This document shows positions 17,978-48,750 of a DNA stretch of 64,000 nt, piece by piece. The stretch is from assembly GCF_001677475.2 (NCBI RefSeq), contig NZ_CP015229.1; one strand, written 5' to 3'. The position numbers and the translations under genes are program-made. The notes under the pieces were generated by a model. That model saw only the letters and a list, made by a program, of their open reading frames with translations, was not told the origin of the DNA and did no database searches. Numbering within the stretch: the stretch's first letter is position 1; every line of letters starts with the position of its first letter. Origin of the DNA: Escherichia coli (GTDB taxonomy: Bacteria > Pseudomonadota > Gammaproteobacteria > Enterobacterales > Enterobacteriaceae).

Positions 17978-18592
<615 letters not shown>

Positions 18593-25436: not shown

Positions 25437-26438
25437 TCAGAGTTTAGCGAATTTTTCGAGGGTGCGAATGAGCTGTGTGACGAAGCCATATTCGTTATCG
25501 TACCAGGCGACCGTTTTCACCAGTTGTAAATCGCCCACGGCGGTAATTTCCGTTTGCGTGGCATCAAACACCGAACCGAAATGGCTGCCAATGATATCGG
25601 AAGAGACTATTTCTTCATCGGTATAACCAAATGACTCGTTATTGTTTGTCGCCTTTTTAAGCGCGTTGTTCACCTCTTCGGCAGTCACTTTTTTTCCGAG
25701 AATCGACACCAGTTCAGTGACCGAACCTGTTTTCACCGGCACGCGTTGCGCATGACCTTTCAGTTTGCCGCTCAGTTCCGGGATCACCAGACCAATGGCT
25801 TTTGCCGCCCCCGTAGTGTGGGGAATGATATTTTCTGCCGCTGCGCGTGAAGCACGTAAATCTTTACCACGCGGGCCATCAACCAGTGACTGGGTGCCAG
25901 TGTAGGCATGAATGGTCGTCATCGTGCCGACTTCTATCCCGAAACTGTCATGCAAGGCTTTGGCCATCGGCGCAAGGCAGTTAGTGGTGCATGACGCCAC
26001 GGAAACAATAGTGTCGTTGCCATCCAGAGTGTCGTCATTGACGTTATAAACGATGGTTTTCATTTCACCGGCAGGGGCGGAAATCAACACCTTCTTCGCG
26101 CCAGCATCAAGATGTGCCTGCGATTTCTCGGCGGAGGTATAAAAGCCAGTACATTCGACAATGATTTCTGCACCTTTCGCTTTCCACGGAATATTTTTAG
26201 CCTCTTTTTCGGCGTAAACCGCGATGCTTTTTCCATCAACGATAAGTGAATCTTCCGTAAAATCAACGCTCCAGGGGAACGGTCCGTAGTTTGAATCATG
26301 TTTCAGCAGGTAGGCGAGAATTTTTGGGGAAGTGAGATCATTAATAGCGACAATGTCTATGTTGCTTTTGACTTCAAGTAATCGACGCAACACCAGTCGA
26401 CCGATACGACCAAAACCGTTAATACCAACTTTACTCAT
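25437..26438 (-). CDS. gapC: Glyceraldehyde-3-phosphate dehydrogenase (GapC-type), intact ORF
   Basis: Track ORF, 333 aa uninterrupted; GAPDH motifs INGFGRIGR and active-site SCTTNCLAP. Confidence 0.9.
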
Positions 26439-26626
26439 GGTCTTCTCCTGTCAGGAACGTTCGGATGAAAATTGATCCTTTCCAGGCTTAGACCAGGATG
26501 GCGGGATGGGCAATCTACATTCTTGCCGTGAAACGTAACGTACTGAAAATGGGTGAACAATATTTAATGAAATTTTAAGAAAAGCTCGTTATGTTAACAG
26601 CAAATTGTTTTAAAGCAGGAAATGTT

Positions 26627-27157
26627 ATGGAAAATAAATACTCTAGGTTACAAATCAGCATTCACTGGCTGGTCTTTTTGCTGGTTATCGCAGCGTATTG
26701 CGCAATGGAGTTTCGTGGTTTCTTCCCACGTAGCGATCGGCCGCTCATCAACATGATTCATGTTTCCTGTGGCATCACAATTCTCGTGCTGATGATGGTT
26801 CGTCTTTTGTTAAGGCTGAAATACCCAACCCCGCCGATTATACCTAAGCCAAAACCGATGATGACGGGACTGGCGCATTTGGGACATTTGGTGATCTATC
26901 TCCTGTTTATTGCGCTGCCAGTGATTGGTTTGGTGATGATGTATAACCGGGGTAACCCGTGGTTTGCGTTTGGTATAACGATGCCTTATGCATCAGAGGC
27001 CAATTTCGAACGGGTTGATAGCTTAAAGTCGTGGCATGAAACGCTGGCGAATCTGGGATACTTTGTCATCGGGTTGCACGCTGCGGCTGCACTGGCACAC
27101 CACTATTTCTGGAAGGACAACACACTTCTACGCATGATGCCGCGTAAACGTTCCTGA
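26627..27157 (+). CDS. cybB: Cytochrome b561
   Basis: Start at ATG 26627 (MENKYSRLQISIHW) with AGGA RBS, inside track ORF 26591..27157; 176 aa; membrane haem protein. Confidence 0.9.
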   Translation: MENKYSRLQISIHWLVFLLVIAAYCAMEFRGFFPRSDRPLINMIHVSCGITILVLMMVRLLLRLKYPTPPIIPKPKPMMTGLAHLGHLVIYLLFIALPVIGLVMMYNRGNPWFAFGITMPYASEANFERVDSLKSWHETLANLGYFVIGLHAAAALAHHYFWKDNTLLRMMPRKRS

Positions 27158-27166
27158 AGGATATTT

Positions 27167-27231
27167 AAAGAAAACGCCTGTACTAAAACCGACCCGTGGT
27201 ACAGGCGAAGAATACGGGCCTACATCGGAAG
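27167..27231 (-). ncRNA. rydC: Small regulatory RNA RydC
   Basis: Minus-strand sequence CTTCCGATGTAGGCCCGTATTCTTCGCCTGTACCACGGGTCGGTTTTAGTACAGGCGTTTTCTTT matches remembered RydC; in the cybB-ydcA intergenic region; terminator hairpin plus U-tract. Confidence 0.75.
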
Positions 27232-27401
27232 CGCCTATTATATTTATTTGTATGACAAATAAAACCATAATCCTTGTCCATACGTCCATCTGGCTTATCT
27301 TTAATCAATTCACCCGATCTTTGATCTCATCAACGGTATCAAAATAAACCAGCGTATAACGTTAAAATCAAACATAAGATTCGATAAATCATGGAGGTTA
27401 T

Positions 27402-27575
27402 ATGAAAAAACTGGCATTTATCTTGGTTATGGGAACGCTTGTTTCCTTTTATGCCGATGCCGGGCGCAAACCCTGTTCTGGTTCGAAAGGGGGGATCTCA
27501 CACTGTACGGCAGGCGGCAAATTTGTTTGTAATGATGGTTCTATTAGTGCATCGAAAAAAACATGCACTAACTGA
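27402..27575 (+). CDS. ydcA: Small secreted protein YdcA (57 aa)
   Basis: Not in ORF track (under 60 aa); ATG 27402 with GGAGG RBS; translated by hand: [57 protein letters not shown]. Confidence 0.8.
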
Positions 27576-27646
27576 AGTGTAAAAGGGGTGCCATGAGAAA
27601 ATGAATCCGCTAGTCAGATGCGCGGGGAAAATTCCCGCGCTTGCCC

Positions 27647-27843
<197 letters not shown>

Positions 27844-27854
<11 letters not shown>

Positions 27855-27900
27855 TCGTTGGCCTCGGTTGATAGAAATATCGGTCGGGGCCTTCGTCTTT
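27844..27900 (+). ncRNA. sokB: Predicted SokB antisense RNA (antitoxin of hokB); boundaries approximate
   Basis: Plus-strand promoter-like TTGCCG (27808-27813), 17-bp spacer, TAAGAT (27831-27836) inside mokB, transcribing antisense across the mokB start; imperfect hairpin then U-rich tract near 27859-27900. Confidence 0.4.
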
Positions 27901-28128
27901 CTGATTCCCGGTTAGCCTGAAAACAGAAAGTCTCAGGCACCCGTGAGCATCCTATGTGGTTTCCTTAGGGACGAAAATAATCACCTGACGAAATTGCGTG
28001 CTGTTTTCCAGAATTTTTCGTTATTCGGTTTAGCCAGTTTAATCATTCGTTACTCTCTTCATTCCAATGGCATTAATCTTCTCTGCAATAATTGTTGTAA
28101 AAATGTGACGCAAAGAGGTTTTTGGTCG

Positions 28129-28155
28129 TAAGTAATTACCGTCAAGTGCCGATGA
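28129..28155 (+). promoter_or_regulatory. Candidate sigma-28 (FliA) promoter for trg
   Basis: TAAGTAAT, 11-nt spacer, GCCGATGA; the -10 matches the sigma-28 consensus GCCGATAA at 7/8, the -35 is weak; about 40 bp upstream of trg. Confidence 0.4.
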
Positions 28156-28194
28156 CTTTCTATCAGGAGTAAACCTGGAAGAGAGACAACGGTA

Positions 28195-29835
28195 ATGAAT
28201 ACAACTCCCTCACAGCGATTAGGTTTTTTGCATCACATCAGGCTGGTTCCGTTATTTGCCTGCATTCTTGGCGGTATCTTAGTTCTATTCGCATTAAGTT
28301 CAGCCCTGGCCGGCTATTTCCTTTGGCAGGCCGATCGCGATCAGCGTGATGTTACTGCGGAGATTGAGATTCGGACCGGGTTAGCGAACAGTTCAGATTT
28401 TTTGCGTTCAGCCCGGATCAATATGATTCAGGCCGGTGCTGCGAGTCGTATTGCGGAAATGGAAGCAATGAAGCGAAATATTGCGCAAGCCGAATCGGAG
28501 ATTAAACAGTCGCAGCAAGGTTATCGTGCTTATCAGAAGAGGTCGGTGAAAACACCTGCTGATGAAGCCCTCGACACTGAATTAAATCAACGCTTCCAGG
28601 CTTATATCACGGGTATGCAACCTATGTTGAAATATGCCAAAAATGGCATGTTTGAAGCGATTATCAATCATGAAAGTGAGCAGATCCGACCGCTGGATAA
28701 TGCTTATACCGATATTTTGAACAAAGCCGTTAAGATACGTAGCACCAGAGCCAACCAACTGGCGGAACTGGCCCATCAGCGCACCCGCCTGGGTGGGATG
28801 TTCATGATTGGCGCGTTTGTGCTTGCCCTGGTCATGACGCTGATAACATTTATAGTGCTACGTCGGATCGTCATTCGTCCACTGCAACATGCCGCACAAC
28901 GGATTGAAAAAATCGCCAGTGGCGATTTGACGATGAATGATGAACCGGCGGGTCGTAATGAAATCGGTCGCTTAAGTCGTCATTTACAGCAAATGCAGCA
29001 TTCATTGGGGATGACAGTAGGGACCGTTCGACAGGGCGCGGAAGAGATTTATCGTGGCACCAGCGAAATTTCCGCTGGCAATGCGGACCTGTCATCTCGC
29101 ACCGAAGAACAAGCGTCGGCAATTGAACAAACTGCCGCCAGCATGGAGCAACTCACTGCGACGGTGAAACAGAATGCGGATAACGCGCATCATGCCAGCC
29201 AACTGGCGCAAAAGGCTTCTATTAAAGCCAACGATGGCGGGCAGACGGTTTCCGGTGTAGTAAAAACGATGGGGGCTATCTCCACGAGTTCGAAGAAAAT
29301 TTCTGAGATCACCGCCGTCATCAACAGTATTGCTTTCCAGACGAATATTCTGGCACTGAATGCTGCCGTTGAAGCCGCGCGAGCGGGTGAGCAAGGGCGT
29401 GGATTTGCCGTTGTCGCCAGCGAAGTACGGACACTCGCAAGCCGCAGCGCCCAGGCGGCGAAAGAGATTGAAGGCTTGATCAGTGAATCAGTTAGGTTAA
29501 TTGACCTGGGGTCGGATGAGGTGGCAACGGCAGGGAAAACCATGAGCACTATTGTTGATGCCGTCGCGAGTGTCACACATATCATGCAGGAAATCGCCGC
29601 CGCCTCGGATGAACAAAGCAGAGGCATAACACAGATTAGCCAGGCGATTTCTGAAATGGATAAGGTGACGCAACAGAATGCTTCTCTGGTAGAAGAGGCC
29701 TCAGCGGCGGCGGTGTCCCTTGAAGAACAGGCGGCACGATTAACTGAGGCGGTGGACGTATTCCGTCTGAACAAACATTCTGTGTCGGCAGATCCTCGCG
29801 GAGCTGGTGAACCAGTTAGTTTCGCTACGGTGTGA
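28195..29835 (+). CDS. trg: Methyl-accepting chemotaxis protein III (ribose/galactose sensor)
   Basis: Track ORF, 546 aa; two TM segments, HAMP, and the conserved MCP signalling domain. Confidence 0.95.
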
Positions 29836-29872
29836 AAATGTTAAAGGGGGGATCGACAGATCCCTTCACCTT

Positions 29873-30796
29873 TCAGAACGGCATTGATTTTCGAATAGCG
29901 TTAATCATCAACTGGCAACCAGAAGAGAACGTCGCATCTACGCGGGTCAGTATTCCAATCGGTTCGCCTGCACCATGTCCCGGAACAGGCAGGGCCACCA
30001 GAGTGGCATGACGCAGGTCGTCTTTTACAGCGCCAGAAGGGACAAACCACACGTAGTCGTATTCAACCGTAAGTTGACGAGATAGCGAAGCAGACAGCGT
30101 TTCGATACAACCCGAAGGAATTTTACATCCCTGGCTCTGCACTAATGCATCTGAATGCTGGCGTGGCGCAGTGCCTTCTGGTGATACAACGACCGGCCAT
30201 TCCAGCACCCGGCTTAGCGTTACGTTCTCCTGAAGTAGCGGGTGATTAGGGCGGACAACCAGCTTCAGCGATTCAAGAAACAGCAGTTCGTAATTAAGCC
30301 CGGTCATCAGTTCAGGATCTGACATCCGACCAATGCCGATATCGATTTCCCCGGTTTTTAAACCCGCCAGAATCATAGGGTTACTCATTGTCGCAACTTG
30401 CAAGGTCGTCTCTTTTTGTTGCTGATGAAACTGACCTATAACCGAAGGTAATATCCCCAGTGCCGCAGTAGGTAGTGCACCAACCCTGACGACATCATTA
30501 TTAAGACCTTCTTTACGATGAAGCGACTGTCCGGCAGTGTTGATGGCGTCAAGAACTCTGACTGCATGCGTTAAAAATTGCTCGCCGGGTAAGGTAAGTT
30601 GCGCCCCCTGACGACCACGCTCAAACAAGCGAGCGCCCGTCAGCTGCTCCAGTTCATTCAATGTCTTAGAGAGCGCAGGTTGACTCAAATTAAGGGTTTC
30701 AGCCGCGCGCCCCAAAGTTCCTTGTTGTGCGACAGCTACGAATGTATGAAGGTGGCGCAAACGGATGCGCTGACTAAACAGACTATTTTTTTCCAT
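29873..30796 (-). CDS. ydcI: LysR-family transcriptional regulator (307 aa)
   Basis: Start at ATG 30796 (MEKNSLFSQRIRLRHLHTFVAVAQQG) inside track ORF 29873..30937; N-terminal HTH. Confidence 0.85.
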   Translation of the reverse strand: MEKNSLFSQRIRLRHLHTFVAVAQQGTLGRAAETLNLSQPALSKTLNELEQLTGARLFERGRQGAQLTLPGEQFLTHAVRVLDAINTAGQSLHRKEGLNNDVVRVGALPTAALGILPSVIGQFHQQQKETTLQVATMSNPMILAGLKTGEIDIGIGRMSDPELMTGLNYELLFLESLKLVVRPNHPLLQENVTLSRVLEWPVVVSPEGTAPRQHSDALVQSQGCKIPSGCIETLSASLSRQLTVEYDYVWFVPSGAVKDDLRHATLVALPVPGHGAGEPIGILTRVDATFSSGCQLMINAIRKSMPF

Positions 30797-47808: not shown

Positions 47809-48750
47809 ATGGCGATGAACGTATTGCAATCACCTTCACGTCCGGGTGTTGGGAAAATATCAGGTTTTTTCTGGCGGAATCCGGGGCTGGGGCTGTTTTT
47901 GCTGCTGCTTGGCCCGCTAATGTGGTTTGGCATTGTCTATTTCGGCTCGCTGCTGACACTGTTATGGCAGGGATTTTATACCTTTGACGATTTCACCATG
48001 TCGGTAACGCCGGAACTGACGCTGGCGAATATCCGTGCGCTGTTTAATCCGGCGAATTACGACATCATTCTCCGCACGCTGACTATGGCTGTGGCAGTCA
48101 CTATCGCCAGCGCCATTCTGGCTTTTCCAATGGCGTGGTATATGGCGCGCTATACCAGCGGGAAAATGAAAGCGTTTTTTTATATTGCGGTAATGTTGCC
48201 GATGTGGGCGAGCTACATTGTTAAAGCCTATGCCTGGACGTTATTGCTGGCAAAAGATGGCGTGGCTCAGTGGTTTTTACAACATCTTGGGCTGGAACCA
48301 CTGCTGACTGCGTTCCTTACATTACCTGCGGTGGGCGGCAATACGCTGTCAACTTCCGGGCTGGGGCGCTTTCTGGTGTTTCTCTATATCTGGCTGCCGT
48401 TCATGATCCTGCCCGTGCAGGCGGCGCTTGAGCGTTTGCCGCCGTCATTGTTGCAGGCGTCAGCTGATCTCGGCGCACGTCCACGACAAACCTTTCGCTA
48501 TGTGGTGCTGCCGCTGGCGATCCCGGGTATTGCCGCTGGCTCTATCTTTACCTTCTCACTCACACTGGGCGATTTTATCGTCCCGCAGCTGGTTGGCCCG
48601 CCAGGATATTTTATCGGCAATATGGTTTATTCCCAGCAGGGGGCGATTGGCAATATGCCGATGGCGGCGGCATTCACCCTGGTGCCGATTGTTCTCATCG
48701 CACTGTACCTGGCGTTCGTGAAACGTCTGGGAGCGTTCGATGCACTCTGA
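47809..48750 (+). CDS. ydcU: ABC transporter permease
   Basis: Track ORF, 313 aa; hydrophobic; starts immediately after ydcT stop. Confidence 0.85.

Follow-up and report, generated by a model that had tools for sequence, protein, structure and literature searches.

Genomic setting of trg

The window, as we call the whole 64-kb stretch of Escherichia coli DNA that was analysed, carries gapC, cybB, RydC, hokB/sok, trg and a gene of the LysR family (ydcI), matching the surroundings of trg in E. coli. The trg coding sequence (28195..29835, + strand) specifies methyl-accepting chemotaxis protein III, a protein of 546 aa, in agreement with the RefSeq annotation of matching E. coli loci. Since no Trg-specific NCBIfam model passed, and the Tar, Tsr, Tap and citrate models all fell below cut-off, the identity of the gene is based on its 98% match to K-12 Trg. 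An Rfam scan of 26500..30000 returned only the sok antitoxin RNA of the hokB/sokB type I toxin-antitoxin locus (27791..27942, - strand, 109.7 bits) and the sRNA RydC (27168..27231, - strand, 90.5 bits), both situated shortly upstream of the trg promoter region, with nothing overlapping the promoter or leader. A terminator-like hairpin was present on the plus strand at 27860..27891, within the sok match. The gapC position (25437..26438, - strand) holds an intact 333-aa open reading frame that matches type I glyceraldehyde-3-phosphate dehydrogenase (TIGR01534, 447 bits, above cut-off); K-12 gapC is listed in two pieces (gapC_1; gapC_2) in the table of Cho et al. (PMC3923258), and the gene appears to be intact in this strain.

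The distribution of the region was surveyed in 5,426 complete E. coli genomes, among which strain PCN033 gave the best overall match. Of these genomes, 5,415 matched the 1.1-kb hokB-trg region at least in part, and the 65-bp segment running from the CRP site to the transcription start site (TSS; 28101..28165) was found in 3,876, so that about one quarter of E. coli genomes lack, or have disrupted, the promoter and the 5' end of trg. Many uropathogenic (B2) strains have no functional trg, which agrees with this fraction. The exact 65-mer of the window, with G at 28128, occurs in only 5 of the 5,426 genomes, and the other 3,871 copies differ from it at one base.

Sigma-28 elements and their strength relative to chance

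An earlier note on this DNA had proposed a sigma-28 (FliA) promoter ahead of trg, with a -10 element matching the FliA consensus at 7 of 8 positions and a -35 element matching only weakly. The sequence bears out both descriptions. On the plus strand, 28129..28155 reads TAAGTAAT-N11-GCCGATGA, and the -10 octamer ends 39 nt 5' of the trg ATG (28195). The -35 element TAAGTAAT (28129..28136) agrees with TAAAGTTT at 4 of 8 positions, the 11-nt spacer (28137..28147) has the canonical sigma-28 length, and the -10 element GCCGATGA (28148..28155), which consists of an extended -10 GC plus core, agrees with GCCGATAA at 7 of 8 positions. Both the extended -10 GC and the CGA core are intact. Relative to the TSS, an A at 28162 (+ strand) transferred from K-12 position 1490461(+), the -10 octamer covers -14 to -7, and the span from TSS to ATG defines a 33-nt 5' leader (28162..28194, + strand) in which folding revealed no structure beyond that of shuffled sequences (z = -0.02).

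To score the site, we used a FliA weight matrix derived from 51 other published FliA ChIP-seq sites (Fitzgerald et al.), with trg left out. The trg site scored 14.8 bits, or 15.8 bits with a matrix from strong sites only, and ranked 2nd of 127,946 positions scanned with the FliA matrix in the window. ChIP-confirmed sites scored on the same matrix (fliC, 15.1 bits; fliL, 14.8; aer, 15.6) place trg within their range. By chance, 0.29-0.58 sites scoring as high should occur per 64 kb on both strands, and the trg motif score, tested for window-wide significance, did not reach it; for the short stretch ahead of trg, with roughly 130 positions in the correct orientation, the chance expectation, by arithmetic from the matrix counts, is about 6e-4. 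The octamer GCCGATRA was found in 10 copies in the window versus 5.3 expected, and a 7/8 -10 octamer is by itself uninformative. The trg match exceeds chance only when its position, spacing and conservation are considered.

Two other FliA-like sites in the window were recorded. The top FliA-matrix match, CAAATTTCACATCAGTAATGCCGATAAA at 18070..18097 (+ strand, 15.7-17.5 bits), combines a perfect -10 (GCCGATAA) with a poor -35 and lies antisense within azoR (17978..18583, - strand). It is present in K-12 with one spacer change, yet is absent from the 52 published FliA ChIP-seq sites, and could be either a look-alike without function or a site that falls under the detection limit. As this site outscores trg and has no reported ChIP-seq peak, score alone identifies no promoter. 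The second, at 48610..48637 (- strand), reproduces exactly the weak FliA ChIP-seq site (GCTGGGAATAAACCATATTGCCGATAAA, FAT 3) that K-12 has within ydcU. Its distance from trg is about 1.75 kb shorter than in K-12, so that about 1.75 kb of the K-12 sequence separating trg from ydcU is missing from the window.

Such figures would suit a reading in which the motif is a chance match and trg is really read from another promoter, of the sigma-70 or sigma-S type, between hokB and trg. Chance alone should give 0.3-0.6 sites this good per 64 kb, GCCGATRA turns up often in the window, and the higher-scoring azoR site is missing from the 52 ChIP-seq sites though K-12 carries it. The agreement of just 4 of 8 bases in the -35 is a weakness of the FliA reading. 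What decides between this reading and a FliA promoter is the experimental record from K-12, together with conservation.

Experiments on the K-12 promoter

Sequence comparison showed that the 28-mer of the window equals that of K-12 MG1655 at all bases. From the CRP site to the TSS the two sequences are identical except for one linker base, G28128 (A in K-12), and the leader differs at A28180 (C in K-12); neither base falls within a recognised element. The experiments described below were all performed in K-12, and fliA and crp lie outside the window.

Three lines of evidence from K-12 bear on the sigma factor. First, Fitzgerald et al. 2014 (PMC4183435, Table 2) give TAAGTAATTACCGTCAAGTGCCGATGAC as the FliA ChIP-seq motif for trg, under a peak of FAT 23, that is, 23-fold above threshold. 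Second, trg RNA fell from 108 in wild type to 4 in a fliA deletion, a change flagged as significant (PMC4183435), and the microarrays of Zhao et al. 2007 (PMC1935009) showed a 2-fold decrease of trg in a fliA mutant and a 2.2-fold increase when sigma-F was induced. Third, the sole trg TSS listed by Cho et al. 2014 (PMC3923258, Additional files 6, 7) is 1490461(+) on NC_000913.2, assigned to the transcription unit trg with 8 reads and with an upstream sequence ending in ...GCCGATGACTTTCTA. The offset between genome versions is 1976, confirmed with sokB (TSS 1490143 versus feature start 1492119), and applying it to the K-12 TSS therefore places the start at A28162 of the window. In Salmonella, trg is likewise treated as a known FliA promoter.

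These data settle in K-12 what the earlier note had put forward and how it had proposed to check it. The sigma-28 promoter ahead of trg is borne out by ChIP-seq, by RNA from the fliA deletion and by the TSS; the start lies 7 nt past the -10 octamer where about 8 bp had been predicted; and the drop in trg RNA from 108 to 4 in the fliA deletion both answers the question of expression in a fliA mutant and agrees with the description of trg as a late flagellar/chemotaxis gene.

The same record weighs on the chance-match reading from both sides. Sigma-70 and sigma-S ChIP-chip signals have also been assigned to the trg region (Cho et al., PMC3923258), and the TSS comes from 8 reads in one data set. 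Against this, this very motif lies under a FliA ChIP-seq peak and deleting fliA removes about 96% of trg RNA (PMC4183435), the sole listed trg TSS lies 7 nt from the -10 (PMC3923258), and the ChIP-chip data of Cho et al. are of low resolution and, for FliA, contain many false calls and are reported to be unreliable by Fitzgerald et al. (PMC4183435). In addition, a scan of 27600..28300 for sigma-70 promoters found none, so that an alternative housekeeping promoter is without support. We consider it very improbable that the match is fortuitous and that trg is read from elsewhere in the intergenic region.

A CRP site next to the -35 element

Directly 5' of the -35 lies a CRP binding site, which was absent from the earlier note with its description of the sigma-28 elements. 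The 22-mer AAATGTGACGCAAAGAGGTTTT (28101..28122, + strand), published for K-12, is centred at 28111.5, which corresponds to -50.5 from the mapped TSS and to -49.5 in the numbering used for aer (octamer at -13 to -6). Its left half-site TGTGA (28104-28108) is perfect and its right half-site GAGGT matches at 0 of 5 positions; overall, 13 of 22 positions agree with the consensus. The TGNGA motif starts 25 nt before the -35 octamer, the same distance as in K-12 aer, and the CRP 22-mers of trg and aer both lie 6 nt upstream of the -35 octamer. The latter was read from an ungapped comparison, used in place of a MAFFT alignment of the two promoters in which gaps broke the register.

Hollands et al. 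2010 (PMC2859248) found that, among the sigma-28 promoters they tested, only aer and trg were directly activated by CRP. In their work the trg100 fragment, which covers this region with CRP, -35 and -10 marked (Fig. S2), was bound by CRP in EMSA with an affinity similar to that for aer, and a trg100::lacZ fusion required sigma-28 and was stimulated by CRP with FliA supplied from a plasmid (PMC2859248). Because FliA was plasmid-supplied, the direct and indirect effects of CRP are separated in this design. At trg, the CRP site stands at the same distance from the -35 and -10 as at aer, where the site lies at -49.5 and shifting it abolishes activation (PMC2859248).

The indirect effect is the substance of a second alternative, in which the sigma-28 promoter of trg is a plain one, the TGTGA is there by coincidence, and CRP acts on trg only through flhDC. 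CRP does control flhDC and hence FliA levels (PMC2859248), the trg site matches at only 13 of 22 positions with a non-consensus right half, and the half-site spacing is 25 nt in Escherichia versus 26 nt in most other genera. This alternative is nevertheless unlikely: trg100::lacZ was activated by CRP with plasmid FliA and the fragment was bound with aer-like affinity, the register is identical to that of aer, where moving the site abolished activation (PMC2859248), and TGNGA recurs among the orthologues at an almost constant distance, in alignment columns that played no part in the anchoring (below). The trg promoter is thus a co-activated sigma-28 promoter and not a plain one, and direct activation by CRP plausibly explains its weak -35.

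FliA occupancy, FliA-dependent RNA, the TSS, and CRP binding and activation are all shown for K-12. Judging from the matching sequence, this strain would be expected to behave like K-12.

Conservation across enterobacterial trg orthologues

Sequence conservation has been reported for the well-characterised FliA promoters of flagellar genes (Fitzgerald et al. 2017, bioRxiv 10.1101/188474). For trg, a footprint was built by scanning one genome per species, which gave 80 trg-orthologue loci from genera including Escherichia, Citrobacter, Enterobacter, Kosakonia, Kluyvera, Phytobacter, Leclercia, Cedecea, Buttiauxella, Pantoea, Mixta, Dickeya, Serratia and others; Salmonella, E. fergusonii and E. 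albertii are missing from the 80. Over 79 upstream regions, the highest FliA-matrix score on the plus strand had a median of 14.8 bits, and scores of at least 12 bits were reached in 82% of these regions versus 0.7% of shuffles.

The 75 unique sequences, window included, were then anchored on the FliA site. Information per column (n=75) was 1.79 bits in the -10 octamer, compared to 0.37 in the spacer and 0.4-0.5 in the flanks. The -10 bases G, C, C, G, A and T are each kept in 74-75 of 75 sequences, and the G at -10 position 7, where the FliA consensus has A, is kept in 69. In the -35, conservation is limited to T-A-A (69-72 of 75), and the other positions vary. About 60 of the 75 regions have a TGNGA half-site 25-27 nt ahead of the -35, the distance being 26 nt in 56 sequences and 25 nt in the three from Escherichia. 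Anchoring with the matrix inflates conservation at consensus bases; it does not explain the conservation of the G at position 7, which is non-consensus, or of TGNGA, which lies outside the anchored columns. That the elements are conserved across genera and the spacer is not argues further against a chance match.

Individual genera showed their own variants. Pantoea orthologues carry a symmetric TGCGA-N6-TCTCA at the CRP position. At five Kluyvera loci the distance from a conserved GTGAC half-site to the -35 downstream is about 33 nt, versus 25-26 nt, and that from the promoter to the trg ATG is shorter by about 16 nt, an arrangement that suggests, from these sequences, a rearranged CRP/promoter geometry.

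Proposed mechanism

We conclude that 28101..28162 is almost certainly the trg promoter, a class 3 (late) flagellar/chemotaxis promoter that is read by FliA, activated by CRP and started at A28162. Under this model, RNA polymerase containing sigma-28 (FliA) would bind the -35 TAAGTAAT and the composite -10 GCCGATGA, and transcription from A28162 would yield the 33-nt leader and trg mRNA. At the 22-mer centred at 28111.5, cAMP-CRP would add direct activation from the unusual geometry (about -49.5) first described at aer; bound just upstream, CRP would recruit or stabilise polymerase in an aer-type arrangement. Expression of trg would then need FliA, which becomes free only after hook-basal body completion and FlgM export, and output would be raised further when cAMP-CRP is active.

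In the numbering of structural studies of sigma-28 the octamer runs from -15 to -8, and these studies describe the GC as read as an extended -10, G-12 as contacted and A-11 as flipped out. The trg site keeps the extended -10 GC, G-12 and A-11, and its A-to-G change falls at -9, downstream of the flipped base. This change probably weakens opening, and the weak promoter elements would in turn create the dependence on CRP. Co-dependence on FliA and CRP has been proposed for E. coli by Hollands et al. (PMC2859248). A broader and more tentative proposal, which we regard as possible rather than probable, is that the non-consensus G and the degenerate -35 have been selected and not merely tolerated, keeping trg dependent on its activator and forming a FliA-AND-CRP gate conserved across Enterobacterales in which the Escherichia CRP site has shifted 1 bp closer.

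The promoter, its sigma factor, its TSS and its co-activator are already known for K-12. The retention of the non-consensus G across genera and the 1-bp shift in CRP register were not found in the literature consulted, and are minor additions. Joint control by FliA and CRP, the regulator of sugar starvation, is sensible for a ribose/galactose receptor. The case is also useful as a calibration, being a real sigma-28 promoter that was recognised from sequence alone: what separates functional alternative-sigma promoters from look-alikes is position, spacing, conservation and an adjacent activator site.

Comparison with known promoters

The closest counterpart is the K-12 trg promoter itself (trgp; PMC4183435, PMC2859248), which has the same 28-nt FliA motif, CRP 22-mer, TSS context and distance to the ATG, and differs by A at 28128 (G in the window) and C at 28180 (A in the window). 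E. coli aer, the prototype of a CRP-activated sigma-28 promoter with CRP at -49.5 (PMC2859248), has the same architecture as trg: the two share a 6-nt linker between CRP site and -35, an 11-nt spacer and imperfect versions of both sigma-28 elements. Their sequences are otherwise unrelated, with 25 of 86 positions identical in an ungapped comparison. The CRP site of aer is the better one (17/22 versus 13/22 at trg), its -35 is better (TAAAGATA) and its -10 worse (GCCGACAT), and its TSS lies 6 nt past the octamer compared to 7 nt at trg.

The class 3 promoters of tar, motA, fliC, flgM and tsr, of the form TAAAGTTT-N11-GCCGATAA, resemble trg in sigma factor, spacing, extended -10 GC and CGA core, and score 15-28 bits on the same matrix versus 14.8 for trg. 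Unlike trg, the promoters of fliC/fliD, flgMN, flgKL, motA and tar show no CRP binding, while at tsr CRP binds 132.5 bp upstream but has no effect (PMC2859248).
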